64,000 nucleotides of DNA from Anaerolineae bacterium (GTDB lineage Bacteria > Chloroflexota > Anaerolineae > CG2-30-64-16): the NCBI GenBank assembly GCA_034434235.1, contig DAOTZV010000182.1:10713-74712 (forward strand), written 5' to 3'. Below are positions 6,601 to 26,290 of the stretch, piece by piece. Both the position numbers and the translations under genes were made by a program. The notes below the pieces were generated by a model. It was given only the letters and a program-made list of their open reading frames with translations. It made no database searches and was not told the origin of the DNA. Position 1 is the first letter of the stretch. Each line of letters starts with the position of its first letter.

Positions 6601-6718
6601 GCTGGAAGCTAGAAGCTGGTAGCTGGTAGGGCGGTAGATCGGCGAGCCGATTGAGTCGGCTGCCGATCTACCGGCATGTGGTCTTCGCCTACCGGCATGT
6701 GATCCTCGCGAGGTTCTG

Positions 6719-8266: not shown

Positions 8267-8273
8267 GGAACCG

Positions 8274-9398: not shown

Positions 9399-10363
9399 TT
9401 GACTGGATCATCGTCCTCCAGGCCGGCGTGGCCACCGGCACCGTGCTCCTCTTCGCGACCGTCGGCGAGATCCTGGCCGAGCGGTCCGGCGTCATGAACC
9501 TGGGCGTCGAGGGGATGATGCTGATCGGCGCGATGACGGCGTACAAGACGGCCGTCCTGATCGGCCAGCCGTGGCTGGGCGTCCTTTTCGCGATGCTGGC
9601 GGCCGGCGCGCTGAGCCTGCTTCATGCGCTGGTGACGATCAGCTTTCAGGCCGACCAGGTGGTGAGCGGCCTGGCGACGAACTTCATGGGGATCGGGTTG
9701 AGCCTGGTGTTGGGCGAGGGATTGAGCAAGGCCGGCACCGTGGCGTTGTTGCCTTCGTACACCGTGCCGATCCTGAGCAGCATTCCGATCATCGGGCCGA
9801 TCTTTTTCACCAATCACAGCGTGATGGTGTATGTGGGTTATTTGTTGACGCCGGCCGTCTGGTTCTACATCAATCGGACGCGGCCCGGGTTGCATCTGCG
9901 CGCAGTGGGCGAATATCCGGCTGCGGCCGATGCGCTCGGCATCAACGTCTATCGCCTGCGCTATCAGTATGTCTTCGTCGGCGGCGTATTGGCCGGACTG
10001 GCCGGCGCCACGATCAGCCTGGCGGTATCGCCCGGCTGGTTCAGCGAGCTGACCACTTCGGGCCAGGGGTGGATCGCCATCGGCCTGGTGATCTTCGCTC
10101 AGTGGGATCCGTGGCGGGCGCTCGCCGGCGCGTATATGTTCGGCGCGGTCCGCCGTCTGATCCTGGACCTGCAGGGGCCGCAGACGCTGCTCGGCCTGGC
10201 CAATCCCTTCTACTACATGCCGAAGCTGGGCTTCTTCCTCCAGATGTTGCCGTATGCCCTCGTGATCCTGATCCTTTTCATCGGTTCACGCGAGGCGATG
10301 AGAAAACGCATCGGCGCGCCGGCCGCGCTGGGCACGCCCTACGTGCGCGGGGAGCGCGGATAG
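9395..10363 (+). CDS. ABC transporter permease (BMP-type)
   Basis: Second permease of the operon, hydrophobic throughout. Confidence 0.85.
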   Translation: MIDWIIVLQAGVATGTVLLFATVGEILAERSGVMNLGVEGMMLIGAMTAYKTAVLIGQPWLGVLFAMLAAGALSLLHALVTISFQADQVVSGLATNFMGIGLSLVLGEGLSKAGTVALLPSYTVPILSSIPIIGPIFFTNHSVMVYVGYLLTPAVWFYINRTRPGLHLRAVGEYPAAADALGINVYRLRYQYVFVGGVLAGLAGATISLAVSPGWFSELTTSGQGWIAIGLVIFAQWDPWRALAGAYMFGAVRRLILDLQGPQTLLGLANPFYYMPKLGFFLQMLPYALVILILFIGSREAMRKRIGAPAALGTPYVRGERG

Positions 10364-10382
10364 ACGCGGGAGGAACGCCTCG

Positions 10383-10419
10383 TATAAAACAAAACGCCCG
10401 CCCCCTCTTCAGGGGCGGG
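10383..10419 (-). terminator. Intrinsic-terminator-like GC hairpin with a U-tract on the minus strand. It may act for both convergent genes.
   Basis: GCCCGCCCC-TCTTCA-GGGGCGGGC, preceded on the plus strand by TAAAACAAAAC (read as GTTTTGTTTTA on the minus strand). It lies between the permease end (10363) and the end of the minus-strand repeat protein (10501). Confidence 0.5.
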
Positions 10420-10500
10420 CCACGATCGGCCTGAAATCACAGCCAACATGTTCGGCCCTCGTCGGTCGAGCCGCGCCGGGATGATGTGCCGCTGTGCGCC

Positions 10501-11295
10501 TCAATCACCGTGATAGACGAGCGTGATGCCGAGTTCCTGGCAGCGTTCCCGCACCTCATCGCCGATGCTCATGGCGATCATGATGCCCTCCACCTTGACG
10601 CCCGGATTCAACGCCTGTACGAAGGCCACTTTCTCGTGTAGCCGATCTATATCTTCCCACTCGCAGTAACTTTTCACTTCAAAGACCGAGATCTGACCAT
10701 CCTGAGCAAGGATATCTATCTCGAATCGCCGTTGCCCCGGGAGGCCAACCACGCCCTTTTCGTCCACCATTCTCTGGCGCAGCCGAAGCTGATCGGGCTT
10801 GATGTCGGGCCGACGCAAGGCGACCCGCAACGCGCCGGCCACCACATCCTCCAGCCGGCGGCCCGAACGCCGCTGCAACCCTCCGACAACGCCCTCAACC
10901 CAATCGCGCAGATCGCTCATTTCTTGTTGCAGGCCTTCGAGGCGCCGATCCACCTCTTCGAAGCGCTGATCTACATGCTCGAAGCGCCGATCAATCTCTT
11001 CGAAGCGCCGGTCGATCTGCTCGAAGCGCCGATCAATCTCTTCGAAGCGCCGGTCGATCTGCTCGAAGCGTTGGTCGATCTGCTCGAAGCGTTGATCTGT
11101 CTTGGCGCTGAAGCGTCTGAATTCGCCGCGAAACTCCCGCATTTCCGCAAGGATCGCCGCCGTCTCTTCTTTGGTGGTGAAAACCCGCAGAAAAGCACGG
11201 AACGCGCGACGTTCCAGATCGGGGTCGCGTTCGATCATCTCCGGAAGCTGCTCTTCCAGAATATGCAAGACTTCTTCATCCTTCAATTTCAACAT
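10501..11295 (-). CDS. Coiled-coil protein: eight tandem heptad repeats (D-x-R-F-E-x-I) in the middle and a C-terminal PD-(D/E)xK-nuclease-like core (EIDIL...VFEVK)
   Basis: Translation reads DQRFEQI DQRFEQI DRRFEEI DRRFEQI DRRFEEI DRRFEHV DQRFEEV DRRLEGL. C-terminal RRFEIDILAQDGQISVFEVKSY fits the D...ExK nuclease motif. A hairpin plus T-tract terminator follows downstream. Confidence 0.6.
   Translation of the reverse strand: MLKLKDEEVLHILEEQLPEMIERDPDLERRAFRAFLRVFTTKEETAAILAEMREFRGEFRRFSAKTDQRFEQIDQRFEQIDRRFEEIDRRFEQIDRRFEEIDRRFEHVDQRFEEVDRRLEGLQQEMSDLRDWVEGVVGGLQRRSGRRLEDVVAGALRVALRRPDIKPDQLRLRQRMVDEKGVVGLPGQRRFEIDILAQDGQISVFEVKSYCEWEDIDRLHEKVAFVQALNPGVKVEGIMIAMSIGDEVRERCQELGITLVYHGD
10936..11096. 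repeat. Near-perfect 21-nt tandem repeat (~8 units, including an exact 42-bp duplication) inside the CDS above
   Basis: GAAGCGCCGATCAATCTCTTC and GAAGCGCCGGTCGATCTGCTC alternate. 10981-11022 is identical to 11023-11064. Confidence 0.85.
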
Positions 11296-11537
11296 CGTCT
11301 ACCTGCCGATCAATCGTATCGCAACCGCTCCGGTTCATGGGTCTCAACCAGCTTGGCTATTGCAAAGTATAACATAAAGCCCCCCTGCTTGCAAGTGCTT
11401 TTTTGCGTCTGGCCGGGTGCTCCAGCGCCGGAGCGGCCGGCCAGCGTTCCTGGCCGGCTTTCAGCCTGCTTCAGGGAACACCGAACGGTAGCACGGACAT
11501 GTCATGGCCGTGCGCTGCTGCTTGAAAGCCGATCGGG

Positions 11538-12131
11538 TCAAGGCTTTGCCAGCCGGCCGTCCAGGCCCAGCTCGGCCGCGATCCCCTTCATCGCCTCCAG
11601 CACGATCCCGACGTGCTCCCAGATGTCCAGGCCCAGCTCCCGCGCGCCCTGTTCGATGTCGGCCCGATTGACCGCGGCCGCGAAGAGCTTGTCCTTCCAT
11701 TTCTTTTTGACCGAGCTGACCTCGACATCGCGGATGTCCTTGCTCGGCCGGACATAGGCCACGGCCATGATCAACCCGGTTAGTTCGTCGGAGGCGTAGA
11801 GGGCCGAATCCATGCGGGTCGTGCGCGGCACGCCCAGGAAAGGCGCGTGCCCCTCTACCGCGTGGATCAGCTCGGCCGGCAATCCCATCTCGCGGAACAG
11901 CCGCAGCGCGGTGCGCGGGTGGCCGTTCACCGGATCGTCCATGTCGGGATACCGCTCGAAGTCCAGGTCGTGGATGAGGCCGGTAATGCCCCACAGCTCC
12001 TCATCCTCGCCGAAGCGCCGTGCATAGCCGCGCATGGCCGCTTCGACTGCCAGCACATGCTTGCGTAAGCTTTCGCTCTGAATCCACTCGCAAACCAAAT
12101 CCCAGGCTTGTTCACGCGTTAATAGTGTCAT
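11538..12131 (-). CDS. HD-domain metal-dependent phosphohydrolase
   Basis: H...HD motif (GLIHDLDFERY), size ~197 aa, GGGAG RBS. Confidence 0.75.
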   Translation of the reverse strand: MTLLTREQAWDLVCEWIQSESLRKHVLAVEAAMRGYARRFGEDEELWGITGLIHDLDFERYPDMDDPVNGHPRTALRLFREMGLPAELIHAVEGHAPFLGVPRTTRMDSALYASDELTGLIMAVAYVRPSKDIRDVEVSSVKKKWKDKLFAAAVNRADIEQGARELGLDIWEHVGIVLEAMKGIAAELGLDGRLAKP

Positions 12132-12465
12132 AATGGCTCCCGATCTCCGACATGCCGGGCACTTACTGACGCGCCCGGCACGTGATGGCTACAATCCCAT
12201 GTTCTCTTTTGCCCCCAGCACCGGTTTGGGCCGGGCGATCTTGACATCCCACCAGGCGCGCAGCGAGGCAATCGCCTCGCGCAACTGGTAGTATGGATTG
12301 CTCAGATACAGACGGCGGTCGGCCGATAGCCCGACGCTCTCCACGCCCAGGTTGTGGCAGGTAAAAAGCGCCCGCGGCAAGCGGCGCCCACGACCAATGC
12401 GCCGCTGAAAAGCACACCGCCAGGCACCCATCGCGCGGCGGCCGTCCTGGTCTGGTGTGGGCTCT

Positions 12466-13176
12466 TCATGATAACGCCTCGGCCTGCAGGCGCAACAGGT
12501 CTCCGATGCCGCCCGCGGCCAGATCGAGGAGGCGATTCAGCATCGCCCGGTCGAACGGCTTGTGCTCGGCCGTACCCTGCAATTCGACATAACGGCCATC
12601 GCGGTTCATCACCACATTCAGGTCCACTTCGGCGCGCAGGTCTTCCTCGTAACACAGGTCGAGCAGCGGCTCGCCGTCCACCACCCCCACGCTGACGGCC
12701 GCTACCGGCGCCAGAAACACCTCCGGGGGCACATAGCCGCCTGCAACCAGCTTGCGCAACGCCAGCGCCAACGCCACGTAGCCGCCGGTGATCGCGGCCG
12801 TGCGCGTCCCGCCATCGGCCTGGAGCACGTCGCAATCCACGATGATCTGGCGCCTGCCCAGCAGCTTCAGGTCCACGGCCGCGCGCAGGCTGCGGCCGAT
12901 CAGCCGACGGATCTCCTGGGTGCGCGGCTGGGGCGTCGTCTCCCGCGGGGTGCGCACCAGGGTGCTGCGCGGCAACATCGCATATTCGGCGGTGACCCAC
13001 CCGCCCTCCTCGTGATTGCGCAACATCCAGGGCGGAAGCTGCTCGTCTATCGTGGCGTTGCACAACACCACCGTATTGCCCTGGGTCACCAGCGCCGAGC
13101 CCTCGGCCCACCTGGTATAACCGATCTCCAGCCTCACCGGCCGCAACTGGTCGCTGCGCCGTCCATCGTCGCGCAT
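12466..13176 (-). CDS. rph: Ribonuclease PH
   Basis: MRDDGRRSDQLRPV... TAEYAMLPRST ... GTRTAAITGGYVAL. The ORF is trimmed to the internal Met, which has a GGGAG RBS. Confidence 0.9.
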   Translation of the reverse strand: MRDDGRRSDQLRPVRLEIGYTRWAEGSALVTQGNTVVLCNATIDEQLPPWMLRNHEEGGWVTAEYAMLPRSTLVRTPRETTPQPRTQEIRRLIGRSLRAAVDLKLLGRRQIIVDCDVLQADGGTRTAAITGGYVALALALRKLVAGGYVPPEVFLAPVAAVSVGVVDGEPLLDLCYEEDLRAEVDLNVVMNRDGRYVELQGTAEHKPFDRAMLNRLLDLAAGGIGDLLRLQAEALS

Positions 13177-13211
13177 AAGTCTCTCCCTGTATGCGTTCGC
13201 GGACAATACGC

Positions 13212-13261
13212 CCATCCACCGTAAGACGAAATTCAAATTCATTTCGTCTTACGGTGGATGG
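13212..13261. terminator. Perfect 21-bp-stem hairpin between the arabinofuranosidase 3' end and the rph start
   Basis: CCATCCACCGTAAGACGAAAT-tcaaattc-ATTTCGTCTTACGGTGGATGG. No obvious U-tract follows. Confidence 0.45.
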
Positions 13262-13265
13262 CACG

Positions 13266-14753
13266 TCACCCCAACCGAAACGTGAACGCGGCCACCGACA
13301 GCGGCGGCAGCTCGCAACTGGCCTTGCCGTTGGCGATGCGCACGTCGGCGAACGGCCGCGCGACCACCAGGTCGGGCTGCTCGAAGCTGTTGGCGGCCTG
13401 GGCGTCCGGCCCGGTGAGCAGCTCGGCGCTGTCCAGGCGAGCGATGTCGCGGTCGGCCAGATGCACCTGGACGACGGCCGGCGCATCGGTGGATCGGTTG
13501 GTGGCGAAGACGTGCACCACGCCCTGGCCCAGGATCGCGCTGGCATCCACGAAGGTCACGCGGCCGTTCGTCTTGCCTTCGTATTCCGGCCCCTGCACCA
13601 CCGTGCGCAAGGCGACGCCATCCCGACGTTTGGCGTACATCTCGAACGGATAGAAGATGGACTGGATCAACAGGTCATCGCCCCGCGTCAGGAGCGGCGC
13701 GATGACGTTGACGATCTGCGCGATGTTGGCGATCTTCACCACGTCGGCGTGGCGGATGAAGCTGTTCAGGAAGCCGGCCGCGACGAGCGCGTCCTCCAGG
13801 TTGTAGATTTCCTCGATGAGGTGCGGCGCAAACTGGCCCGCGCCGTCCATCTGCCGGTTCTTGTACCAGACGTTCCATTCGTCGAAGCACAGATAAAGCC
13901 GCTTTTTGCTTCGCCGCTTCGCCTGGACGAAACGACACGCGGCATCCATCTCCTCGATCTGGCGATCGATCGAGTTGGTGATCGCCAGATAGTCGGCCGT
14001 GTCGCCGTCGCGATTGCCCACGTAGCGGTGCAGGCTGATGTAGTCGGCGTAGTCGCCGATGTACTCCAGCACCTGGCGATCCCATTCCATATAGGTCGGC
14101 AGGCCGGTCGTGCACGAACCACAGACCACCGTTTCGATGCTCCTGTCCACGTCCTTCATCATCTTGGCGGCCTGCTGCGCGCGGATGGCATAGTGGTCGG
14201 CCGGCACGTGGCCGAGCTGCCAGGGGCCGTCCATCTCGTTGCCCAGGCACCACAACTTCACGCCGTGCGGCTCGGGGTGGCCGTTGGCCGCGCGCAGATC
14301 GGCGAACTTCGTGCCCGGCGGACAGTTGCAGTACTCTACCCAGTTGCGGGCCTCTTCGGGCGTGCCGGTGCCCAGGTTGACCGTGAGCATCGGGGTCCAG
14401 CCCATCCGCCGGCACAGCGTGATGAATTCGTCGGTGCCGAACTGGTTCGGCTCGATGCTCTGCCAGGCCAGCTCGCGCACCGCGGGCCGATTGGCCTTCG
14501 GCCCGACGCCGTCCAGCCAGTGATAGCCCGAGGCGAAGTTGCCGCCCGGATAGCGCATCGCAGTCATCCGCAGGCGTTTCAGGGCTTGCAGTACGTCCGT
14601 GCGAAAGCCGTCGGCATCCGCATGCTTCGACTGTGGATCGTAGACCCCCTCATACACCGCGCGGCCCATGTGCTCCAGAAAGCCGCCGAAGATGCGCGGG
14701 TCAACCGACCCGATCTGAAATGCAGTGTGAAGGATGATGTTCGTCTGGTTCAT
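13266..14753 (-). CDS. Alpha-L-arabinofuranosidase, GH51 family
   Basis: GH51 hallmarks: GGNFASGYHW, WCLGNEMDGPWQ, C-terminal beta-sandwich. Start MNQTNII has an AGGAG RBS. Confidence 0.85.
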   Translation of the reverse strand: MNQTNIILHTAFQIGSVDPRIFGGFLEHMGRAVYEGVYDPQSKHADADGFRTDVLQALKRLRMTAMRYPGGNFASGYHWLDGVGPKANRPAVRELAWQSIEPNQFGTDEFITLCRRMGWTPMLTVNLGTGTPEEARNWVEYCNCPPGTKFADLRAANGHPEPHGVKLWCLGNEMDGPWQLGHVPADHYAIRAQQAAKMMKDVDRSIETVVCGSCTTGLPTYMEWDRQVLEYIGDYADYISLHRYVGNRDGDTADYLAITNSIDRQIEEMDAACRFVQAKRRSKKRLYLCFDEWNVWYKNRQMDGAGQFAPHLIEEIYNLEDALVAAGFLNSFIRHADVVKIANIAQIVNVIAPLLTRGDDLLIQSIFYPFEMYAKRRDGVALRTVVQGPEYEGKTNGRVTFVDASAILGQGVVHVFATNRSTDAPAVVQVHLADRDIARLDSAELLTGPDAQAANSFEQPDLVVARPFADVRIANGKASCELPPLSVAAFTFRLG

Positions 14754-14888
14754 GAGAGGCTCCTGAATCTTGGAAAGGTCTGCAACCGTTTTGGGCATTG
14801 TAGCACCATCGCCCAGGCGAAGCAAACCCCTGAAAAATGCCTTTGCGAATTTGACGAAGGCCGCGATTTTGCACTACACTGTACTTTG

Positions 14889-14991
14889 TAGACTCAGTAG
14901 ATCACAGATTCAAGCTCAGAGGGGGTCTGTGACCCCCGACCGCCGGTCACAGACCGGCTTGGAGCAGCAAAATTGTGATCTACTGAGACTG
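14889..14991. repeat. ~100-bp MITE-like element with ~16-bp terminal inverted repeats and an internal 11-bp-stem palindrome
   Basis: TIRs AGACTCAGTAGATCAC and GTGATCTACTGAGACT. Internal palindrome GGTCTGTGACC-CCCGACCGCC-GGTCACAGACC. The core 14894-14967 recurs, inverted, at 45970-46043. Confidence 0.8.
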
Positions 14992-15019
14992 TTTACCCAC
15001 ACTTCAGGGAGGGACTTCT

Positions 15020-15364
15020 ATGGACATCGCGAAGCTGTTCAACACCGATTTTCCGGCCTGGCTGGAAGCCAACGCAGAGGCGGCCCGACGGGTGGGCGCG
15101 AAGTACATCTTCAACATCACCGGCGAAGGGGGCGGCCAGTGGTTCCTCGACCTCTCGCGCACCGGCCCCAAGATCGAGCCGGCGTCCGGTCAGCGCGCCG
15201 ACTGCACGATCACGGTGAGCGCGGCCGACTTCGAGAAGCTGTGGGCCAATCCTTACATCGGAGAGTCCATGTATTATGCCGGCAAGATCTGGATCTCGGG
15301 CGATGAGATGCTCGCCATGAGCCTGCAGAACGTCTTCGCGCGGGTCAAATCGGCGGCCGGTTAA
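15020..15364 (+). CDS. SCP2 sterol-carrier-like domain protein
   Basis: AGGGAGGGA RBS, 114 aa, SCP2-like pattern (FNITGEGGGQWFLDL...ITVSAADFEKLW...GKIWISGD). Confidence 0.65.
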   Translation: MDIAKLFNTDFPAWLEANAEAARRVGAKYIFNITGEGGGQWFLDLSRTGPKIEPASGQRADCTITVSAADFEKLWANPYIGESMYYAGKIWISGDEMLAMSLQNVFARVKSAAG

Positions 15365-15499
15365 GACCCGATGGTGTTGCGCAGCGGCGTTCGGCGGCCA
15401 CGCCAGCCCGCCGGAGGGCCGTTAGCTTGATGCCTATGGGCGCAGACCTCCTGCGAGCCAGAAGTGCGCAAGTCCGATCTTTGAACGGAGTGAAGCTCC

Positions 15500-17152
15500 A
15501 TGCCGCTACATCCTCTTGCCGGCCAGCCGGCTCCCCACGAATTGCGGATCAACGTGCCGCGGCTCGTCGCGGCCTATTATACCGACCGGCCAGACCCCCG
15601 GGAGCCGGCGAACCTGGTGGCGTTCGGCACATCGGGGCATCGCGGCACGTCGCTCGAATGCAGCTTCAACGAAGCCCACATCCTCGCCATCTCTCAAGCC
15701 ATCTGCGAGCTGCGCTGGGCGCAGGGGATCAGCGGGCCGCTCTTCATCGGCATGGACACCCATGCCCTCTCCGAGCCGGCCCTCTATACCGCGCTCGAAG
15801 TGTTCGCCGCCAACGGCGTCGAAGTGATGGTGCAAACCGGCCTGGGCTATACCCCCACGCCGGTGATCTCGCACGCCATCCTGAGCTACAACCGGGGCCG
15901 CTCGGCGCGGCTGGCCGACGGCGTGGTCATCACCCCGTCGCACAATCCGCCGGCCGACGGCGGCTTCAAGTACAATCCGCCGTCGGCCGGCCCGGCCGCG
16001 CCCGAAACCACCCGCCGCATCCAGGAGCGGGCCAACGAGCTCCTGCGCGCCGATCTGAAGGGCGTGAAGCGCATGCCGGTGGGTCGGGCGTTGCGGGCCG
16101 AGACGACCCACATGTACGACTACATCACGCCCTACGTCCGCGATCTGAGGAACGTGATCCGCCTGGATGCCATCGCAGCCGCCGGCCTGAAGATCGGCGC
16201 GGATCCGCTGGGCGGCTCGGGCGTGGCCTACTGGGGCCCGATCGCCGAGATGTACGGCCTGAACATCGAGGTGGTCAACCCGATGGTGGACCCCACTTTC
16301 TCCTTTATGACCGTGGATTGGGACGGCAAGATCCGCATGGATTGCTCGTCGCCCTACGCGATGGCCGGGCTGATCGGACTGAAGGATCGCTTCGACATCG
16401 CGTTCGGCAACGACACCGACTTCGACCGCCATGGCATCGTCACGCCCGGTGCCGGGTTGATGAACCCGAACCACTACCTGGCGGTGGCGGTCTGGTATCT
16501 CTTCCGCAATCGGCCCGGCTGGCGGCCCGACGCGGCCGTGGGCAAGACGCTCGTCTCCAGCTCGATGATCGACCGCGTGGCCGCGGCCGTCGGCCGTCCG
16601 CTGGCCGAAGTGCCGGTCGGCTTCAAGTGGTTCGTGGATGGCCTGCTGGACGGCTCCTTCGGCTTCGGCGGCGAGGAGAGCGCCGGCGCGTCCTTCCTGC
16701 GACTGGACGGCACGGCCTGGACGACCGACAAGGACGGCTTCATCATGGACCTGCTCGCGGCCGAGATCACGGCCGTGACGGGCAAGGATCCGGGCGAACA
16801 CTATCGGGATCTGGAGGCGCGGTTCGGCGCGGCGGTCTACGAACGCATAGATGCGCCGGCCAATGCGCGGCAGAAGGCGGTGTTGAGCAACCTCTCGCCG
16901 GCCCAGGTGAGCGCCACCGAGCTGGCCGGCGAGCCGATCCTGGCCAAGCTGACGCGCGCGCCCTTCAACGACGCGCCCATCGGCGGCCTGAAAGTGGTGA
17001 CCGCCAACGGCTGGTTCGCGGCCCGGCCCTCGGGCACTGAAAGCGTCTACAAGATCTACGCCGAAAGCTTCCGGGGCGTGGACCATCTGCGCCGCATCCA
17101 GGAAGAGGCGCAGGCGATCGTGGCCGCGGCGTTCCGCGAGGCCGGCGTGTGA
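15500..17152 (+). CDS. pgm: Phosphoglucomutase (alpha-D-glucose phosphate-specific)
   Basis: TSGHRG active-site serine loop, GMDTHA, overall alpha-D-phosphohexomutase architecture, ~550 aa. Confidence 0.9.
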
Positions 17153-18054
17153 TGGACGGCTGGGTCTTCGACATTCAGCGCTTTTCGATCCACGACGGTC
17201 CCGGCATCCGCACGACCGTCTTCCTCCAGGGATGTAACCTGCGTTGCTTCTGGTGCCACAATCCGGAATCGCAGGATGCGGGGCCGGTCATTCAGTTTTT
17301 CCCCGATCGCTGCATCGCGTGCGGGTTGTGCGTCTCGACCTGTGCGCAGGCCGCGCAACTGCTCGTGGACGGCCGACGGGTCTACGTGCGCGATCTGTGT
17401 CGCATGTGCGGCGCGTGCGTGGATACCTGCTACGCGGGCGCGCTGATCATCAAGGCGAAGCGCCTGTCGGTGGCCGAAGTGCTGGCGGAAATCGAAAAGG
17501 ATCGGCTGTATTACGAGGATTCCGGCGGCGGCGTGACCTTCTCCGGCGGGGAGCCGACGCTGCAAAGCGACTTCCTGGCGGCCCTGTTGGCCGGCTGCAA
17601 GGAGCGCGGGTTGCATACCGCGGTGGACACCGCGTGTCACGTGCCGTGGGAAACGCTGGCCGCCCTGTTGCCGTACACCGATCTGTTCCTGGTGGACGTG
17701 AAGGCGTTCGACGAGGGGACGCATCGAGCGGGCACGGGGACGGGCAATCGGCGCATCCTGGACAACGTGCGCCGGCTCGCGGCCGCCGGCGCGACGATGT
17801 GGGTGCGCATCCCGGTCGTGCCCGGCTTCAATGCGAACGAGGAGGAGCTCGGCCGGATCGCCGACTTCCTGGCCGGCCTGGACCATGTGCCGCCCGTCGA
17901 GCTGTTGCCGTTCCACCACCTGGGCGGCGGCAAGTACGAGAGCCTGGGCCGCGCCTATCCGGCGCGCGATCTCAAGCCGCCTTCGGACGAAGCGATGGAG
18001 AGCTTTCGGCAACTGTTCGTCGGCCGGGGCATCCCGACGATCAGGGGAACTTGA
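17152..18054 (+). CDS. Glycyl-radical enzyme activating protein (radical SAM, with an extra ferredoxin-like clusters domain)
   Basis: CNLRCFWC radical-SAM CX3CX2C motif, plus CIACGLCVSTC...CRMCGACVDTC additional clusters. The start overlaps the pgm stop (GTGATG). Confidence 0.85.
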   Translation: MDGWVFDIQRFSIHDGPGIRTTVFLQGCNLRCFWCHNPESQDAGPVIQFFPDRCIACGLCVSTCAQAAQLLVDGRRVYVRDLCRMCGACVDTCYAGALIIKAKRLSVAEVLAEIEKDRLYYEDSGGGVTFSGGEPTLQSDFLAALLAGCKERGLHTAVDTACHVPWETLAALLPYTDLFLVDVKAFDEGTHRAGTGTGNRRILDNVRRLAAAGATMWVRIPVVPGFNANEEELGRIADFLAGLDHVPPVELLPFHHLGGGKYESLGRAYPARDLKPPSDEAMESFRQLFVGRGIPTIRGT

Positions 18055-18109
18055 GCTACAAGTATTGCGAAATTTATTTCGTAAGCAGAACGTGTGGAGG
18101 TCCGTGTCC

Positions 18110-20266
18110 ATGCTTCCAGCGCCTCGCATTCCCTATCGCGAGCGGATCGCCGCGCTGACCCGCACCAAGCTGGAGTTCAACGCGGCCAAGCTGGCCCGCG
18201 ACGGCTACCACGACGTGGACGACCACGGCAACATCCCCTGGCCCGACCCGATCCCCTTCGAGCGCATCAGCAATCACCCCGACGGCGGATCGTACGGCGC
18301 GCGCTGCATCGGCCAGAACTTCCGGCGCTGGCTGGAGGTGCATCCGGTGTACATCCACCCCATGAGCGCGCTCGCCGGCGCGTGGATCACGACGTTGCCG
18401 GGCGTCGGGGGATGGCGGCCGGAGGATCGGCCCACGCATCTGTACCCTTATCACAAGAAATATCATTTCATGGCCACCGGCATCGGCGCGATGAACCACT
18501 TCGGCCCCGACATGCGCATCGGCCTGGAGCTGGGATGGGGCGGCCTGCTGGACAAGATCCGCTACTATCGCGCTCGCAACCGGCCGGCCGACACCGCGTT
18601 CTACGACGCGGAAGAGGACTTCGTGCTCGGCGTGCAGAACTGGATCGGCCGCCACGTGACGTATGCCCGCGCGCGGGCCGCGGCCGAACCGGACCCCGAA
18701 GTGCGCGCCAACTACGAAGCCATCGCGGAGATGAACGAACACCTGGTGCACGGCCCCCCGCGCACCCTGCGCGAGGCGTGTCAGTTCCTGGCCTGGTTCC
18801 AGGCGGTGGATCGCATGTGGTATCACGGCGGCGCGCTGGGCCAGCTCGACGAGCTGTTGCGGCCGTACTACGAAGCGGATGTCGCGGCCGGCATCATAGA
18901 CGACGAGATGGTGCTCTGGTTCATCGCCAGCCTCTTCTTCAACGATACGCACTACTCGCAGATCGGCGGCCCCGCGGCCGATGGGCACGATGTCACCAGC
19001 CGCATGTCGTACCTGATCCTGGAGGCCGCGCATCTGCTGAAGATCCCGTCGAACCTGGCGATCCGCCTGCACGATGGCCTCGATCCGGGCCTCTTGCGCC
19101 AGGCGCTGATCTATAACCTGGAGGACGGTACCGGGCCGAGCATCTCGTGTGCGAAGGGCCTGGACGAGGGCTATGCGCGCAACGGCGTGCCGATCCAGCT
19201 CGCCCGGCTGCGCGCGAAGGTGGGCTGCAACTGGACCGCGCTGCCGGGCATCGAGTACTGCCATCAGGATGTCACGCGGCAATGCCTCGTCGCGCCGTTT
19301 CTGCTGGCCTTCTACGAGCTGGTGGACGACCCCGCGGCCCCGCGCACCATGGATGAACTGTGGCGGCGCTACGTGGAACATCTGGCGATCTCGGTGCGGG
19401 TGCTCAAAGAGGGCTTCGACTGGCACATGCAACATCACGCCGACAACCTGATCGAGATCGTGTTGAATCTGTTCTGTCACGGGCCGATCGAGCGCGGGCT
19501 GGATGCGGCGGCCGGCGGGGTGGACATCTACTTCCTGACCGCCGATGGCCTGGGCCTGGCGACCGTGGCCGACTCGTTCGCGGCCATCGAGCAGCGGGTG
19601 GTGATCGAGAAGCGGCTGACGTGGGAGCAGTTGGCCGAACACCTGCGCAACGATTACGCCGGCGCGGAACACGTGCGGCTGATGCTCAAGAACATCCCGC
19701 GCTTCGGCGCGGGCGGCACCCGCGCCGATGGATGGGCGAAGCGCATCGCCGAGACCTATACCCGGCTCGTGCGCGGCACGCCGACCCCGCTCGGCTATAC
19801 GATCATCCCCGGCCTCTTTTCGCACGGCGGCATCGCCCAATACGGCGCGGACCTGGGCGCCACGCCCAACGGCCGCCACGCCGGCGCGCCCATCTCCCAC
19901 AGCGCCAACCCCGATCCGGGCTTCCTGCCCGGCGGCGGCGCCGCATTGACCGCCAAGGCCTCGGCCGTGGCGGCTGTGCAACCGGGCTGGGGCAACTCTG
20001 CGCCGCTGCAGCTCGATGTGGACGCGCGGCTCTTGAAGGAGGCCGGCGGCCTGGAGGCGCTCGAGGCGCTGATCCGCACCCACAACCGTCAGGGCGGCAC
20101 GCTGATCAACCTGAACATCGTCTCCAAGGAGAAGATCCTGGAGGCGCACAAAGATCCGTCGAAGTACCCCGACCTGATGGTGCGGGTCACCGGCTACAGC
20201 GCCTATTTCCAGTCGCTGTCGCCGGCCTATCGGCAGCAGATCGTAGATCGGCTGCTGGCGGCGTAA
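18110..20266 (+). CDS. Glycyl radical enzyme (PFL2/DeHy-like family), substrate unknown. It is shorter than canonical members, at ~718 aa.
   Basis: C-terminal glycyl-radical motif RVTGYSAYF ~25 aa from the end. It sits immediately downstream of a dedicated activase. GGAGG RBS 9 nt before ATG 18110. Confidence 0.7.
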   Translation: MLPAPRIPYRERIAALTRTKLEFNAAKLARDGYHDVDDHGNIPWPDPIPFERISNHPDGGSYGARCIGQNFRRWLEVHPVYIHPMSALAGAWITTLPGVGGWRPEDRPTHLYPYHKKYHFMATGIGAMNHFGPDMRIGLELGWGGLLDKIRYYRARNRPADTAFYDAEEDFVLGVQNWIGRHVTYARARAAAEPDPEVRANYEAIAEMNEHLVHGPPRTLREACQFLAWFQAVDRMWYHGGALGQLDELLRPYYEADVAAGIIDDEMVLWFIASLFFNDTHYSQIGGPAADGHDVTSRMSYLILEAAHLLKIPSNLAIRLHDGLDPGLLRQALIYNLEDGTGPSISCAKGLDEGYARNGVPIQLARLRAKVGCNWTALPGIEYCHQDVTRQCLVAPFLLAFYELVDDPAAPRTMDELWRRYVEHLAISVRVLKEGFDWHMQHHADNLIEIVLNLFCHGPIERGLDAAAGGVDIYFLTADGLGLATVADSFAAIEQRVVIEKRLTWEQLAEHLRNDYAGAEHVRLMLKNIPRFGAGGTRADGWAKRIAETYTRLVRGTPTPLGYTIIPGLFSHGGIAQYGADLGATPNGRHAGAPISHSANPDPGFLPGGGAALTAKASAVAAVQPGWGNSAPLQLDVDARLLKEAGGLEALEALIRTHNRQGGTLINLNIVSKEKILEAHKDPSKYPDLMVRVTGYSAYFQSLSPAYRQQIVDRLLAA

Positions 20267-20296: not shown

Positions 20297-20325
20297 TTGA
20301 CCAGCTTGCCGTTTTCGTGTATGAT
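20297..20325 (+). promoter_or_regulatory. Candidate promoter upstream of the peptide ABC substrate-binding gene
   Basis: TTGACC-N17-TATGAT, ~110 nt before ATG 20436. Confidence 0.4.
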
Positions 20326-20435: not shown

Positions 20436-22103
20436 ATGGCCAACAGTCCAACCCGTCTCAGCCGTCGTTCGTTTTTGCGGCTGGCCGGCCTGAGCGCCGG
20501 CGCAGCCGCGCTGGCCGCCTGCGCGCCGGCTGCCACGCCGGCCCCGGCCGCGCCGCCGGCTGCCACTCAGGCGCCCGCGGCCACCCAGGCGCCCGCGGCC
20601 ACCAAGCCGGCCGCGCCCACCGCGGCCCCGCCGCCCGCGCAGCCCAAGCAGATCGTCGTCGCTCAATACGCCGACGTCGTGAGCCTTGACCCCCAGGACA
20701 CCAACGACAATGCCTCGTATGGCCCCGAGAAGCTGATGTTCGAGGGCCTGGTCGGCTTCAACGAGAAGATGGAGATGGTGCCTCAGCTCGCCGAACGCTG
20801 GGAAGCCTCGGCCGACGCCACCACCTTCACCTTCTACCTGCGCAAGGGCGTCAAGTTCCACGACGGCACGCCCTTCAACGCGGAGGCCGTCAAGTACAAC
20901 TTCGACCGCGTCACCAATCCCGACAACAAGCTCAAGCGCTATGGCCTGTACAAGATCATCGCCAAGACCGAAGTCGTGAACGAGTACACCGTCAAGTTCA
21001 CGACCTCCGAGCCGTTCGGCGCGATGATCGCGACCTTCGCGCATCCCGCGGGCGGCATCGTGAGCCCGGCCGCGGCCAAGCAGGGCGCGGAAGCGCCGGC
21101 CTTCGGCAAGAAGCCGGTCGGCACCGGGCCGTACAAGTTCGTCGAGTGGGTGCCGGGCGATCATCTGACGGTCGAGAAGTTCGCCGACTACTGGAACCCG
21201 GACCAGGGCGCGAAGGTGGATCGCTTCATCATCAAGCCGGTGCCCGAGGCCGGCACCCGCATCAACATGCTGCTCGCCGGCGACGCCCAGTTCATCAACA
21301 CCGTGCCCTATGCCCAGGTCAAGCAACTGAAGGGCAACCCGAACGTGGCCATCGCCGAGAACGAGGCGATCTACACCTTCTGGGTGGCGATGAACACGCA
21401 GAAGGAACCGTTCAAGGACAAGCGGGTGCGCCAGGCGCTCAACTATGCCATTGACAAGCAGGCGATCATTGACTCGGTGCTCGCCGGCTACGGCAAGCCG
21501 GTGGATTCGCCGCTGGCGCCGCGCGTCTGGGGCTACAAGTCGGTCAAGACCTATCCGTATGACCTGAAGAAGGCCAAGGAGCTGCTCGCCCAGGCCGGCG
21601 TCAGCGGCTTCAAGACCACCCTGTGGGCGGCCGAGAGCACCGAGGCCAAGCAGGTGGCCGTGGCGCTCCAGGCCCAGCTCAAGGAGGTGGGCTTCGACGT
21701 CGAGGTGGTGACGATGGAGGCCGCTACGCTGAGCGCCGAGCGCTTCAAGAAGTTCGAAGAGAACAAGAGCATGATGAACTACGCCGGCTGGTCCCCCTCG
21801 ACCGGCGATGCCGACTGGGGCCTGCGACCGTTGCTCGCCAAGGAGTCGTGGCCGCCGGCCTCCTTCAACCTGGCGTTCTGGGACAATCCGGAGTTCGACG
21901 CGCAGATCAAGGCCGGGTTGCAGACCGCCGATCCCGAGAAGCGCAAGGCCGCCTACGCCAAGGCGCAAGAGATCGTGATGGAAGAAGCGCCCTGGATCTT
22001 CTTGTGGGTCAACCAGGTGCTGGGCGGCATCAGCACCAAGTGCGAAGGCATGGTGATCCAGCCGGACGGCATCGCCTATCTGCGCACCGGCCGGTACAAG
22101 TAA
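20436..22103 (+). CDS. ABC transporter substrate-binding protein, family 5 (peptide/nickel/opine type), with Tat/lipoprotein-like signal
   Basis: RRSFLRLAGLSAGAAALAAC signal, AP-rich linker, SBP-5 fold. AAGGAGGAG RBS. Confidence 0.85.
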   Translation: MANSPTRLSRRSFLRLAGLSAGAAALAACAPAATPAPAAPPAATQAPAATQAPAATKPAAPTAAPPPAQPKQIVVAQYADVVSLDPQDTNDNASYGPEKLMFEGLVGFNEKMEMVPQLAERWEASADATTFTFYLRKGVKFHDGTPFNAEAVKYNFDRVTNPDNKLKRYGLYKIIAKTEVVNEYTVKFTTSEPFGAMIATFAHPAGGIVSPAAAKQGAEAPAFGKKPVGTGPYKFVEWVPGDHLTVEKFADYWNPDQGAKVDRFIIKPVPEAGTRINMLLAGDAQFINTVPYAQVKQLKGNPNVAIAENEAIYTFWVAMNTQKEPFKDKRVRQALNYAIDKQAIIDSVLAGYGKPVDSPLAPRVWGYKSVKTYPYDLKKAKELLAQAGVSGFKTTLWAAESTEAKQVAVALQAQLKEVGFDVEVVTMEAATLSAERFKKFEENKSMMNYAGWSPSTGDADWGLRPLLAKESWPPASFNLAFWDNPEFDAQIKAGLQTADPEKRKAAYAKAQEIVMEEAPWIFLWVNQVLGGISTKCEGMVIQPDGIAYLRTGRYK

Positions 22104-22113
22104 GCTTTGACTA

Positions 22114-22145
22114 CGTGCCAGGCGCCAGAGAGGGCGCCTGGCACG
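22114..22145. repeat. REP-like palindrome, family 2, just after the binding-protein stop
   Basis: CGTGCCAGGCGCC-AGAGAG-GGCGCCTGGCACG. Related copies lie at 45905 and 50559. Confidence 0.7.
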
Positions 22146-22179
22146 CACCGGTGAATTTGCTTAGCGAGGCAATCTCAGG

Positions 22180-23106
22180 GTGTTCGGCTACTTTGTTCGG
22201 CGCGTTGTAGCTCTTATCCCGACCCTGTTCGGGGTCTCGGTGGCGGTCTTCCTGCTGTTGCACCTGGTGCCCGGCGACCCCGCGCGCATGGTGGCCGGCC
22301 TGGACGCCACCGAGGCCGACCTCGTCCTGATTCGCCAGGATCTCGGCCTGGACAAATCGTTGCCCGAGCAGTACCTGACCTGGTTGAACAACCTGCTCCA
22401 CGGCAACATGGGCAAGTCCACCCGCTCGCGCAACCCCGTCACCTACGAGATCGGCCTGCGCATGCCGGCCACCTGGCAGTTGACGGCCGTGAGCATCACC
22501 ATCGCGGTGGTGATCGGCATGGTCACCGGCATCGTCGCGGCCACCCGGCGCAACTCGGTGTGGGATTACGGCAGCATGGTGGCCGCGCTGCTGGGGATCT
22601 GCACCCCTTCCTTTTGGCTCGGCCTGATGCTCATGCTGATCTTCGCCGTCCAGCTCCACTGGTTCCCCACCAGCGGCCGGGGCGACTGGCGGCATCTGGT
22701 GTTGCCGGGCTTCACCCTTGGCGCGGGCGCGGCCGCCATCATCGCACGGGTCACGCGTTCCAGTCTGCTCGAGGTGCTGAACCAGGATTACATCCGCACG
22801 GCCACGGCCAAAGGCCTGCGGCCGGCCACGGTCATCTATCGCCACGCGCTGAAGAACGCGCTCATTCCGGTCGTCACGGTGGTGGGCCTGGAGTTCGGCT
22901 ATCTGCTCGCCGGCGCGGTCATCACCGAGACCGTGTTCGCCTATCCGGGGATCGGCCGGCTGCTGGTGGACTCCATCGGCTTTCGCGATTTCCCGGTCGT
23001 CCAGGGCATCCTGCTGATCCTGGCCACGCAGTTCGTCCTGATCAACCTGGTCGTGGATCTGATCTACGCCTGGCTCGATCCGAGGATCCACTATGGCAAC
23101 GCCTAG
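22180..23106 (+). CDS. ABC transporter permease (DppB/OppB-like)
   Basis: Binding-protein-dependent permease with an EAA-like loop. GTG start. Confidence 0.8.
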   Translation: MFGYFVRRVVALIPTLFGVSVAVFLLLHLVPGDPARMVAGLDATEADLVLIRQDLGLDKSLPEQYLTWLNNLLHGNMGKSTRSRNPVTYEIGLRMPATWQLTAVSITIAVVIGMVTGIVAATRRNSVWDYGSMVAALLGICTPSFWLGLMLMLIFAVQLHWFPTSGRGDWRHLVLPGFTLGAGAAAIIARVTRSSLLEVLNQDYIRTATAKGLRPATVIYRHALKNALIPVVTVVGLEFGYLLAGAVITETVFAYPGIGRLLVDSIGFRDFPVVQGILLILATQFVLINLVVDLIYAWLDPRIHYGNA

Positions 23107-23989
23107 CACTACCGCCGGTACCGCAGTCCTGATGGCGTCCGGCCGGCCGCGCAGCCTGTGGCGCGATGCCTGGACGCGCCTGAAAAAGAACAAGGCCGCC
23201 ATGTTCGGCGGCTTCGTGGTCATCCTGCTGCTCTTCGCCGGCATCACCGCGCCGTGGATCGCGCCATATGACCCGATCAAGCAGAACCTGCGCGATAACC
23301 TGATGCCGCCTTCGGCGACGCACTGGCTGGGGACCGACGTGCACGGCCGGGACATCTTCAGCCGCATCCTGTACGGCGCGGCCATCTCGCTGCGCATCGG
23401 CTTCCTCGGCGCGCTGCTGGGCGGGGCCATCGGCGTCGTGCTGGGGCTGATCTCCGGCTATTACGGCGGCCTGGCCGACATGCTGATCATGCGCCTGGTG
23501 GACATCCAGCTGGCGTTCCCCGGCCTCCTGCTGGCGATCGCCATCATCGCCGTCATCGGGCCGGGCCTGGAGAACGTCATCATCGCGGTCGGCATCTTTT
23601 CCGTGCCGACCTTCACGCGGGTGGTGCGCGGATCGGTGCTCTCGGTCAAACAACAGGATTTCGTCATGGCCGCGCGCACGGTCGGCGCGACCGGCCCGCG
23701 CATCATGCGGGTCCATCTCTTTCCCAACATCCTGGCGCCCGTGCTCGTGCTGCTCACCATGCGTGTGGCCACGGCCATCCTGACGGCCGCCAGTTTGAGC
23801 TTCCTGGGCCTGGGCGCGCAGCCGCCCATCCCCGAATGGGGCGCCATGCTCAGCGACGGCCGCGACTACCTGGTGTTGGCCCCGCACGTGGCCACTTTCC
23901 CGGGCCTGGCGATCTTGCTCGCCGTCCTCGGCTTCAACCTGCTGGGCGACGGCCTGCGCGATGCGCTCGACCCGCGCCTGCGCATCTAA
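23093..23989 (+). CDS. ABC transporter permease (DppC/OppC-like)
   Basis: Overlaps the preceding permease by 14 nt. Typical DppC topology. Confidence 0.8.
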   Translation: MATPSTTAGTAVLMASGRPRSLWRDAWTRLKKNKAAMFGGFVVILLLFAGITAPWIAPYDPIKQNLRDNLMPPSATHWLGTDVHGRDIFSRILYGAAISLRIGFLGALLGGAIGVVLGLISGYYGGLADMLIMRLVDIQLAFPGLLLAIAIIAVIGPGLENVIIAVGIFSVPTFTRVVRGSVLSVKQQDFVMAARTVGATGPRIMRVHLFPNILAPVLVLLTMRVATAILTAASLSFLGLGAQPPIPEWGAMLSDGRDYLVLAPHVATFPGLAILLAVLGFNLLGDGLRDALDPRLRI

Positions 23990-24004: not shown

Positions 24005-25420
24005 ATGACCGATTTCGACCTCCTGCGCGCCACCGAATTCAGCCGCCTGGATGCGACCGGCCAGATCTACCTGGACTACACCGGCGGCGGCCTCTACGCC
24101 GAAAGCCAGCTTCGCCAACACCTCGATCTCCTCAGGGAGAACGTCTTCGGCAACCCGCATTCGCACAATCCCACCTCGCAGGCGATGACCTGCCTGGTGG
24201 ATCAGGCGCGGGCCTATGTGCTGGAGTTCTTCAACGCGCCCCCCGGCGAATACGCGGTGATCTTCACGCCGAACGCTTCGGGCGCGCTCAAGCTGGTCGG
24301 CGAGGCGTATCCGTTCGGCCCCGGCGATCACTACCTGCTCACCTTCGACAACCACAATTCGGTCAACGGCATCCGCGAGTTCGCGCGCGCCAAAGGCGCG
24401 CAGTTCACCTATCTGCCGATCGGCGGGCCGGAGCTGCGCGTGGATCCGGCGACGCTGGACGAATATCTGGCGTTGGCCGCGCCGGGCCGCCACAACCTGT
24501 TCGCGTTTCCGGCGCAATCCAACTTCACCGGCGTCCAGCACCCGTTGGAGATGATCGGCCGGGCGCACGAGCGGGGATGGGACGTGTTGGTGGACGCCGC
24601 GGCCTTCGCGCCGACCAACCGGCTCGACCTGGCCCGCTGGCGGCCCGATTTCGTGCCGCTTTCGTTTTACAAGATGTTCGGCTATCCGACCGGCATCGGG
24701 TGTCTGCTGGCGCGGCGGGAGGCGCTGGCGAAGCTGCGCCGGCCCTGGTACGCGGGCGGCACGATCACCATTTCGTCGGTGCAGGGGGATGGCCACTACC
24801 TGGCGCCGGGCGAAGCCGGCTTCGAGGACGGCACGATCAACTACCTGAACATTCCGGCCGTGGAGATCGGCCTGCGCTTTCTGGCCGGCGTGGGCATGGA
24901 GGCCATCCACGAGCACGTCATGGCCTTGACCGGCCGGCTCCTCGAGCAGCTCGTCGCGCTGCGCCATAGCAATGGCCGGCCGCTGGTCAAGATCCACGGC
25001 CCGACCGACCTGAACGCCCGCGGGGGCACGGTGACCATGACCTTCTACGACCGGGAGGGCCGGGCGATAGACGATCAACGCGTCGAGCAGCTCGCCAACC
25101 GCCAGCGGATCTCCGTGCGCACCGGTTGCTTCTGCAACCCGGGCGCGGGCGAAGTGGCCCACGGCCTGACGGCCGAGATCATGCGGACGTTCTTCGGCCG
25201 GCCGGTGGCGCCGTCGTTCCAGGAGTTGCGCCGGGAGATGCGCGAGCGCTTCGGCCGCGACATCAGCGCGGTGCGCGTGTCGGTGGGCCTTGCTTCCAAC
25301 CGCGGGGACGTGGACGCGTTCATTCGCTTCGCGGCCGGCTTTCTAGACCGCACGGCCGACGAGATCGGCGAGATGGAGCCGGGCCCCGCGCCCTGCTCCA
25401 CCGACCGCGACGCGGCATGA
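24005..25420 (+). CDS. Class V aminotransferase-fold PLP enzyme resembling the N-terminal domain of molybdenum-cofactor sulfurase (MOCOS/ABA3) or a NifS-like desulfurase
   Basis: IYLDYTGGGLYAESQL, FTGVQHP, SFYKMFGYPTGIGCL (PLP-lysine region), C-terminal TGCFCNPGAG. Confidence 0.65.
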   Translation: MTDFDLLRATEFSRLDATGQIYLDYTGGGLYAESQLRQHLDLLRENVFGNPHSHNPTSQAMTCLVDQARAYVLEFFNAPPGEYAVIFTPNASGALKLVGEAYPFGPGDHYLLTFDNHNSVNGIREFARAKGAQFTYLPIGGPELRVDPATLDEYLALAAPGRHNLFAFPAQSNFTGVQHPLEMIGRAHERGWDVLVDAAAFAPTNRLDLARWRPDFVPLSFYKMFGYPTGIGCLLARREALAKLRRPWYAGGTITISSVQGDGHYLAPGEAGFEDGTINYLNIPAVEIGLRFLAGVGMEAIHEHVMALTGRLLEQLVALRHSNGRPLVKIHGPTDLNARGGTVTMTFYDREGRAIDDQRVEQLANRQRISVRTGCFCNPGAGEVAHGLTAEIMRTFFGRPVAPSFQELRREMRERFGRDISAVRVSVGLASNRGDVDAFIRFAAGFLDRTADEIGEMEPGPAPCSTDRDAA

Positions 25421-26276: not shown

Positions 26277-26290
26277 TGGGAGGTTTCCCG

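Follow-up and report, generated by a model that had tools for sequence, protein, structure and literature searches.

A glycyl-radical enzyme with a C-x-W motif and its activase from an Anaerolineae bacterium: a probable link to carbohydrates

The locus and its glycyl-radical enzyme

We analysed a stretch of 64,000 nucleotides (hereafter the window) from the genome of an Anaerolineae bacterium (assembly GCA_034434235.1, contig DAOTZV010000182.1, positions 10,713 to 74,712), focusing on four co-directional genes of the plus strand that follow each other head to tail and encode an SCP2-fold protein, a phosphoglucomutase (pgm), the activase of a glycyl-radical enzyme (GRE) and the GRE itself. Judging from their sequences, the last two very probably constitute a functional enzyme and activase of a distinct, uncharacterised clade, in which the motif C-x-W, with a tryptophan two positions past the catalytic cysteine, stands in place of C-x-E. 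GREs are the anaerobes’ route to chemically hard reactions without oxygen, and newly assigned GRE clades have revealed such pathways as the formation of trimethylamine from choline, the dehydration of hydroxyproline, the cleavage of sulfonates and “anhydroglycolysis”. The features of the two genes are as follows (positions are those of the window).

17152-18054, plus strand: GRE-activating enzyme of the radical-SAM type, about 300 amino acids, from an ATG (alternative GTG at 17149); TIGR02494 score of 355 bits against a cut-off of 174
17233-17256, plus strand: radical-SAM cluster motif CNLRCFWC (CX3CX2C), from the translation
17311-17343, plus strand: ferredoxin-like CX2CX2CX3C motif CIACGLCVSTC, from the translation
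17398-17430, plus strand: ferredoxin-like CX2CX2CX3C motif CRMCGACVDTC, from the translation
18096-18100, plus strand: Shine-Dalgarno-like GGAGG, 9 nt 5' of the ATG of the GRE gene, read directly from the sequence
18110-20266, plus strand: GRE of the C-x-W clade, 718 amino acids; Pfam matches PFL-like and Gly_radical
18497-18499, plus strand: His130 in M-N-H-F-G-P-D, aligned to His164 of glycerol dehydratase (1r8w) and invariant in the family
19223-19258, plus strand: Cys loop G372-C373-N374-W375-T-A-L-P-G-I-E382-Y383, from the translation and its alignment to GCVE
20183-20209, plus strand: glycine loop R692-V-T-G695-Y-S-A-Y-F, the glycyl-radical site by family, from the translation; Pfam Gly_radical over residues 633-700

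With its CX3CX2C motif, two further cysteine clusters and a score above the cut-off, the activase belongs to the subfamily described by TIGR02494 (PFLE_PFLC). Its Pfam matches are Radical_SAM, Fer4_12 and Fer4, the Fer4-type region covering residues 47-103. It passes no specific NCBIfam equivalog model, the best being that of the HypD activase (342 bits against a cut-off of 425). The GRE gene begins 55 nt further downstream. Its open reading frame (ORF), when delimited mechanically, runs from 17831 and overlaps the activase gene, and the real start is the ATG at 18110, as this codon is preceded by the GGAGG sequence and the homologues, which are 713-735 amino acids long and 68-100% identical, align from about residue 9. 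The existence of hundreds of full-length GRE homologues and a G+C content at third codon positions (GC3) of 0.87-0.89 indicate that the ORFs of the locus are not there by chance.

The glycine loop (Gly_radical score of 51 bits), the Cys loop, the fold and the cognate activase together place the protein in the GRE superfamily, in the division resembling pyruvate formate-lyase (PFL). In the HMMER alignment, G-C-N-W falls column for column on the GCVE of glycerol dehydratase (GD), propanediol dehydratase (PD) and PflD, so the catalytic cysteine is present, as Cys373, and Trp375 takes the place of the glutamate. The AlphaFold model (mean pLDDT of 80, pTM of 0.85) adopts the predicted ten-stranded α/β barrel of the superfamily, with low local confidence at the Cys loop, and in a Foldseek search it matched 5i2g, 1r8w, 8yjo and 5a0u (PD, GD, PflD and CutC, respectively) with TM scores of 0.78-0.80 and 19-21% identity. 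In aminoacyl radical enzymes (AAREs) the radical-bearing glycine is replaced by alanine, serine or threonine (PMC13450708); Gly695 is present and conserved, which rules out this type of enzyme.

The gene is evidently under selection, given its low dN/dS values and the roughly 100 residues conserved in at least 97% of 64 relatives. The codon-level comparison comprised four close relatives with measurable dS (88-96% identical), with dN/dS reaching 0.08 against locus L002 and 0.13-0.15 against L041, L042 and L064 (we designate the loci compared by L and a number), and a fifth one, L015, with 80% identity and dN/dS of 0.135. These low values (0.08-0.15 among the close relatives), along with the intact motifs, also dispose of the idea of a pseudo-GRE.

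The initial annotation, made from the sequence, had described a GRE of unknown specificity, about 718 amino acids long, with the loop RVTGYSAYF and a dedicated PFL2-type activase, and had not found the canonical motif G-C-[VI]-E. This description is borne out by our analyses: the GRE is intact and passes no NCBIfam equivalog, the activase is encoded by the adjacent gene, and the canonical motif is indeed absent. Two findings had been named as fatal to the annotation, namely a missing catalytic Cys loop and orthology to PFL or TdcE. Alignment to characterised GREs, however, located the thiyl cysteine at Cys373, the comparisons below speak against such orthology, and the phylogenetic placement that had been proposed puts the enzyme in the PFL2-like radiation.

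A clade with tryptophan in place of glutamate

To place the enzyme among its relatives, we searched 1.84 billion cluster representatives exhaustively with HMMER, which yielded 6213 GRE-like proteins, and aligned the window protein with 85 full-length representatives found among the best 150 of them (n=86). The motif C-x-W is present in 24 of the 86 sequences, in all of which it is followed by [VI]-P-G-x-E-[YW]-x3-D; the core family is characterised by GC[NH]W, and the more distant members (240-390 bits) have GCQW, GCFW, GCGW or ACPW. All 24 sequences form a single clade in the neighbour-joining tree, with no C-x-E sequence inside. Since C-x-E sequences appear from about 250 bits, the clade is a branch inside the PFL2-like radiation and separate from every characterised group. 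The C-x-W enzymes are, on this sequence evidence, a monophyletic, uncharacterised branch of PFL2-like GREs. The patterns G-C-[N/H]-W-x-x-[LIV]-P-G-x-E-[YF] and R-V-T-G-[YF]-[ST]-A-[YF]-F are essentially invariant in the 64 relatives, the frameshifted locus L040 being an exception to the latter, and His130 is invariant as well.

The nearest relative of the window GRE is that of L002, a metagenome-assembled genome of the Chloroflexota (96% identity); the exact sequence of the window GRE had no match in the assembly index. The 39 genome loci with the GRE family all come from metagenome-assembled or uncultured genomes, representing Chloroflexota/Anaerolineae, Ktedonobacterales, Spirochaetota (including Treponema from termite guts), Clostridia, Latescibacterota, Acidobacteriota, Rikenellaceae, Chthonomonadaceae and Bathyarchaeia; members of the clade occur in Poribacteria as well. 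Two short peptide patterns alone sufficed to find 438 confirmed metagenome stretches. Four loci (L052, L095, L119 and L120) encode two paralogous C-x-W GREs within about 10 kb; in L119 and L120, an activase gene accompanies one copy, and the other has a Gfo/Idh/MocA gene at its side, joined in L119 by a ManD gene.

C-x-E, with its glutamate bound to the substrate, is kept by CutC, the C-S lyases, the three isomerases and each of the six C-O eliminases (PMC13450708); the enzymes following this rule are GD, PD, HypD, CutC, IslA/IseG, HpsG/HpfG, HplG, YbiW and PflD (PMC13450708). Across the whole C-x-W clade the glutamate is missing, a tryptophan (Trp375 in the window protein) being found there instead. 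No C-x-W enzyme is listed in the same source, a 2026 review of the GRE superfamily (PMC13450708), and we found neither a description of the clade nor any link of GREs to carbohydrate or sulfatase loci in the literature we searched.

Comparison with models of specific function tells the same for the protein as a whole. The window GRE scores 210 bits with TIGR01774, a generic model of the PFL2-3 subfamily with a cut-off of 678, and stays far below the cut-offs (given second) of all equivalogs: HpsG (177/1000), HpfG (158/1000), HypD (155/1100), the PflD-type model NF007437 (153/1109), CutC (143/1050), HPAD (98/1150), IAD (93/1100) and PFL (TIGR01255, 59/994). When the family profile was compared with PDB sequences, GD came out on top (222 bits), followed by PD (205), PflD (205), HpsG, CutC and HypD. 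Because of these low equivalog scores and the identity of 19-21% to solved GREs, we consider the enzyme distinct from the known specificities, and it is orthologous to no characterised GRE.

Public sources give relatives of the protein the names “pyruvate formate lyase” or “formate C-acetyltransferase”, and the Pfam PFL-like match might likewise be taken to mean that the enzyme converts pyruvate or another 2-ketoacid to acetyl-CoA and formate in fermentation. PFL chemistry, however, requires an adjacent Cys418-Cys419 pair, and the window enzyme has a single cysteine, in G-C-N-W. Moreover, PFL is the weakest among the 33 PDB matches listed (73 bits, in the C-terminal third only). Identity with PFL or TdcE is ruled out by the single cysteine and the TIGR01255 score, a role as a formate-lyase is extremely improbable, and the database names are wrong for this enzyme, which has one cysteine where PFL and TdcE need two.

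The fact that GD and PD are the closest solved relatives by both profile and fold invites a different idea, namely that we are dealing with an ordinary 1,2-eliminase whose substrate is a small diol or amino alcohol (for instance glycerol, 1,2-propanediol, ethylene glycol or a closely similar compound formed in sugar fermentation) and which employs some other base. The activase is of the eliminase type, and two residues of the GD active site have conserved counterparts, His164 in His130 and Tyr339 in Tyr282; the former is the proposed acid for the leaving hydroxyl in GD (PMC13450708). Against this stand the replacement of the glutamate by tryptophan and the further changes of GD Ser282, Asp447 and Tyr640 to Ala242, Gln386 (with Asp387 one position on) and Phe570, the TIGR01774 score far below its cut-off, and the lack of an aldehyde dehydrogenase, a microcompartment shell protein or a 1,3-propanediol dehydrogenase among the recurrent neighbours described below. 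We thus regard an ordinary eliminase as unlikely.

The replacing residue is itself aromatic, and phenylacetate decarboxylase also lacks the glutamate (it has Cys482-x-Gln484 and an essential Trp495; PMC13450708). One could therefore think of a non-carbohydrate, hydrophobic or aromatic substrate processed by an enzyme of the decarboxylase or fumarate-adding type, with the tryptophan lining a hydrophobic pocket. The family profile, however, gave only 100-122 bits with HPAD, BSS and MASS (116-122 for TutD and MasD), about half of the values for eliminases and isomerases. Neither in the 55-nt gap between activase and GRE genes nor after the GRE gene is there a small ORF that could encode an HPAD-type Fe-S subunit or another accessory subunit, and the genes found around the relatives concern carbohydrates rather than aromatic compounds, β-oxidation or a fumarate pathway. 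The decarboxylases HPAD and IAD were rejected on account of the failed equivalog models and the lack of an adjacent HPAD-type small-subunit ORF, and X-succinate synthases because TutD and MasD score below the eliminases and genes for the accessory β/γ subunits are missing. Overall, an aromatic substrate seems very unlikely.

Genomic neighbourhoods of the enzyme

To learn what the C-x-W enzymes associate with, ORFs from about 120 loci were clustered and the recurrent clusters named by Pfam, NCBIfam and PDB searches. The activase is the only frequent partner: where both flanks extend for at least 1.3 kb (74 loci), it lies within 500 bp of the GRE gene in 32, and where each extends for at least 5 kb (40 loci), in 21. 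The less frequent recurrent neighbours include pairs of sugar permeases of the ATP-binding cassette (ABC) type (about 21 loci), an SBP_bac_1 binding protein (15) and a GntR/LacI-type regulator (9), along with Gfo/Idh/MocA oxidoreductases (about 14), a dehydratase of the ManD subgroup of the enolase superfamily (11), an Ams1-like GH38 α-mannosidase (10, often directly 3' of the GRE gene), sulfatases (at least 7) and the putative glycosidase GxGYxYP (6, directly 5' of the GRE gene). GH31, GH3, a BNR-repeat protein, a ROK kinase and MFS transporters recur as well. Another 98 immediate neighbours, scanned together against Pfam, revealed no dominant family, the largest being MFS with seven members.

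A compact conserved arrangement comprises genes for a regulator, a binding protein, two permeases, the activase, the GRE and GH38 (e.g. L016, L013, L118 and L113) and is found in Clostridia, Spirochaetes and some Anaerolineae. Three of the distant C-x-W members have surroundings on the same theme: the first lies beside genes for β-helix proteins, a sugar ABC system and an SDR epimerase, the second beside those for a SIS protein, an ABC system and two URO-D-like proteins, and the third adjoins a class II aldolase gene. The richest candidate pathway context for the family is a long co-directional operon on a 655-kb marine contig (L107, positions 4550-18059), which encodes, in this order, a sugar-binding protein, two permeases, a pyridoxal phosphate-dependent enzyme of Cys/Met metabolism, the activase, the GRE, a ManD-like dehydratase, a metallo-β-lactamase-fold protein, a cupin, an SDR epimerase/dehydratase, an MFS transporter, a CBM9-like protein and a ROK kinase.

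Ten loci encode URO-D-like proteins. Divergent proteins of this fold (PF01208) are found in L015 (1403-2437), L126 (5397-6557 and 9904-11160), L127 (3430-4686) and L125 (1-653), and further ones lie near GREs in L006, L027, L042, L043, L059, L065, L085, L087 and L088. They recur beside both core and distant C-x-W GREs, and the activase-GRE pair of L126 lies between two of them. These neighbours have no PDB relative detectable by sequence and no NCBIfam match, and a methyltransferase role for them is not obvious, as no gene for a corrinoid protein was seen beside them.

In the window itself, the genes for SCP2 and pgm lie upstream. The features concerned, together with the candidate promoters on either side, are listed here.

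14851-14880, plus strand: promoter-like site upstream of the SCP2 gene; a weak consensus match only
15020-15364, plus strand: SCP2-fold small protein, 114 amino acids; Pfam SCP2, 53.5 bits
15500-17152, plus strand: phosphoglucomutase of the alpha-D-glucose-1,6-bisphosphate-dependent type, 550 amino acids; equivalog TIGR01132, 927 bits against a cut-off of 778
17149-17154, plus strand: overlap of the pgm stop and the activase start, gTGAtg, read directly from the sequence
20297-20325, plus strand: promoter-like TTGACC-17-TATGAT between the GRE stop and ABC-transporter genes; 10 of 12 matches in a consensus scan, weak evidence

The product of 15500-17152 is a phosphoglucomutase by the TIGR01132 model and has all four PGM/PMM Pfam domains and the active-site motif TPSHNP. 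Its stop codon (TGA, 17150-17152) shares one nucleotide with the activase ATG (17152-17154), or four if the GTG at 17149-17151 is the start. The activase and GRE genes thus appear to be co-transcribed with pgm and translationally coupled to it, in an arrangement that is lineage-specific; the SCP2-fold gene, which occupies the same position in L002 (89% identity), may head the transcription unit. From the overlap, which is real, the initial annotation had surmised a link to sugar-phosphate metabolism and suggested that the synteny of pgm, activase and GRE be checked in relatives. The synteny is retained in L002 and nowhere else: a tblastn search of the 120 loci with the pgm, SCP2, SBP_bac_5 and GH51 genes matched only L002, and there only pgm and SCP2. 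We have accordingly rejected both pgm and the downstream transporter as features of the family; the link that recurs appears to be one with carbohydrate uptake and degradation, not with sugar phosphates specifically.

A sugar phosphate as the substrate, as in the case of YbiW and PflD (1,5-anhydrohexitol-6-phosphate isomerases), with the coupling to pgm reflecting a shared glucose-phosphate pathway, nevertheless has several points in its favour. The stop/start overlap exists also in L002, PflD ranks within the first three of the PDB matches, its loop having the pattern P-G-x-x-Y-x-L-x-D in common with our enzyme, and some distant members of the clade adjoin a class II aldolase or a SIS-domain protein. 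Yet pgm is upstream in only the window and L002 of about 120 loci, the related loci possess ABC or MFS importers, which deliver unphosphorylated sugars, and sugar kinases are rare neighbours. The NF007437 score is also far from the cut-off, and the C-x-E glutamate that in YbiW and PflD hydrogen-bonds the C2-OH (PMC13450708) is lacking in the clade. A sugar phosphate is therefore an improbable substrate, if slightly less so than the small diols or amino alcohols considered above.

Some other genes of the window may be mentioned. Upstream of the SCP2 gene and divergent from it lies a gene for a GH51-type α-L-arabinofuranosidase (13266-14825, minus strand; 580 bits with NF051901, the cut-off of which is 625, and a match to Pfam Alpha-L-AF_C), the sole glycosidase gene near the window GRE and one absent from the related loci. 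Directly 3' of the GRE gene, genes for an SBP_bac_5 (GsiB/Dpp-like) binding protein and two permeases (20436-23989, plus strand) are followed by those for a class-V aminotransferase (24005-25420) and a protein of the penicillin-amidase family (26126-28714), none of which is conserved with the GRE gene, not even in L002; the promoter-like site at 20297-20325 suggests that the transporter genes form a transcription unit of their own. An operon for a Bmp/PnrA-type ABC transporter, which encodes a binding protein, a double ATPase and two permeases (5212-10363, plus strand), and an adjoining adenine deaminase gene (3290-5068, minus strand) look like a purine or nucleoside salvage cluster. Positions 13-1743 (plus strand) encode a MoeA molybdopterin molybdenumtransferase fused to a C-terminal PBP_like domain, in an ORF that may begin before the window, and two neighbouring Helicase_C_3 genes (29334-31799 and 33511-35292, both on the minus strand), the second XPB/ERCC3-like (ResIII and ERCC3_RAD25_C), may represent a paired helicase system. 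Rfam and tRNA scans of the window detected no RNA genes. The region around the GRE gene is chromosomal, with 62-73% G+C, and a mobile element or island is ruled out by the even composition and the housekeeping genes of the wider flanks (FtsK, RNase J, RNase PH and MoeA).

Candidate function and comparison with known systems

As the recurrent neighbours of the C-x-W enzymes are genes of sugar uptake and degradation, the substrate is probably a carbohydrate or a small molecule derived from one. We are, on balance, inclined to a reading that goes one step further, namely that the window protein is a functional GRE which acts on a carbohydrate-derived substrate by a chemistry dispensing with the canonical glutamate base. 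Several facts weigh against it. The neighbourhoods are heterogeneous, and apart from the activase no partner reaches 20% of the loci; many of the contigs surveyed are short, and in some loci, L001/L003 and the window among them, most neighbours are housekeeping or unrelated genes. The carbohydrate link is statistical and not tied to a defined pathway, and given the heterogeneity of the neighbours no pathway can yet be written. Every genome carrying the gene is metagenome-assembled. The structural model, built on a shallow alignment (33 sequences, none of them below 67% identity), has pLDDT below 50 over residues 371-387 of the Cys loop, so that the position of Trp375 relative to the substrate pocket rests on sequence alignment alone.

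If the enzyme works on a carbohydrate-derived substrate, the initial steps would, from what is known of the family, be the usual ones. The three-cluster radical-SAM activase would cleave S-adenosylmethionine and take a hydrogen from Gly695, and the radical stored there would be passed to Cys373 as a thiyl radical, which would then abstract a hydrogen from the substrate. The latter might be imported by the sugar ABC or MFS transporters or freed by the glycosidases and sulfatases. What follows is more speculative. The reaction might be a radical cleavage of a C-O bond of the sugar, which would be dehydrated, have its ring opened or lose an ether or ester substituent, although this part of the proposal is rather doubtful. 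Trp375 may stack on the sugar ring through CH-π contacts, as is typical of sugar-binding sites, and the role of the glutamate base could be taken over by another residue (Glu382, Asp387 and His572 being conserved candidates) or be made unnecessary by a good leaving group.

It is conceivable, but tentative, that the C-x-W clade represents a new functional class of GREs, carrying out a carbohydrate transformation not yet described for these enzymes and using a sugar-stacking tryptophan in place of the glutamate base; an unphosphorylated sugar or sugar acid might be dehydrated, have its ring opened or be stripped of an ether or ester substituent. Were this so, the class would be at work in glycan-degrading anaerobes of many phyla and would provide the first assignable role for an archaeal PFL-like GRE, that of Bathyarchaeia. 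The clade deserves attention in any case: it is widespread across many phyla, abundant in metagenomes (the 438 stretches mentioned above) and breaks the C-x-E rule of every characterised eliminase and isomerase. When the metabolism of uncultured anaerobes is reconstructed, the misnaming as PFL can introduce false fermentation steps to formate or acetyl-CoA, and any reconstruction for Anaerolineae, Poribacteria, Latescibacteria or Bathyarchaeia in which a C-x-W gene counts as PFL would be wrong. The activase and GRE of the window offer a compact test system, and the loci with the regulator, the ABC system, the activase, the GRE and GH38 give hints as to the substrates to be tried.

Of the known systems, the most similar are GD of Clostridium butyricum (1r8w/1r9d) and PD (5i2g), which have the best profile scores (222 and 205 bits) and the best fold matches (TM scores of 0.79-0.80), the same glycine loop, the same position of the catalytic cysteine and a three-cluster activase of the same subfamily; His164 and Tyr339 of GD are matched by His130 and Tyr282. 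They differ in having only about 20% identity to the window enzyme, which is about 70 residues shorter (mostly at the N-terminus), in the essential C-x-E glutamate replaced by tryptophan, in Ser282 and Tyr640 of GD replaced by alanine and phenylalanine, and in the aldehyde-processing or microcompartment genes, which are not found near the GRE. Phenylacetate decarboxylase (PhdB/PAD), the only C-x-Q enzyme described (PMC13450708), resembles our enzyme in having no glutamate two positions past the catalytic cysteine, a likeness known from the description of the PAD motif and not from sequence comparison. Its substrate, in contrast, is an arylacetate. As PAD has C-x-Q, C-x-E is not obligatory for catalysis by GREs.

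PflD and YbiW (8id0, 8yjo and 8id7) are the sole characterised PFL-like GREs that act on sugars, opening the ring of 1,5-anhydromannitol-6-phosphate and 1,5-anhydroglucitol-6-phosphate. Unlike the C-x-W enzymes, they retain C-x-E, with the glutamate hydrogen-bonded to the C2-OH (PMC13450708), and their 6-phosphate substrates are derived from the phosphotransferase system, whereas the C-x-W loci have ABC or MFS importers. PflD is nevertheless close to the window enzyme by profile (205 bits) and by fold (TM score of 0.80), the pattern P-G-x-x-Y-x-L-x-D after the Cys loop is common to both, and a carbohydrate genomic context is shared by PflD/YbiW and the C-x-W GREs.

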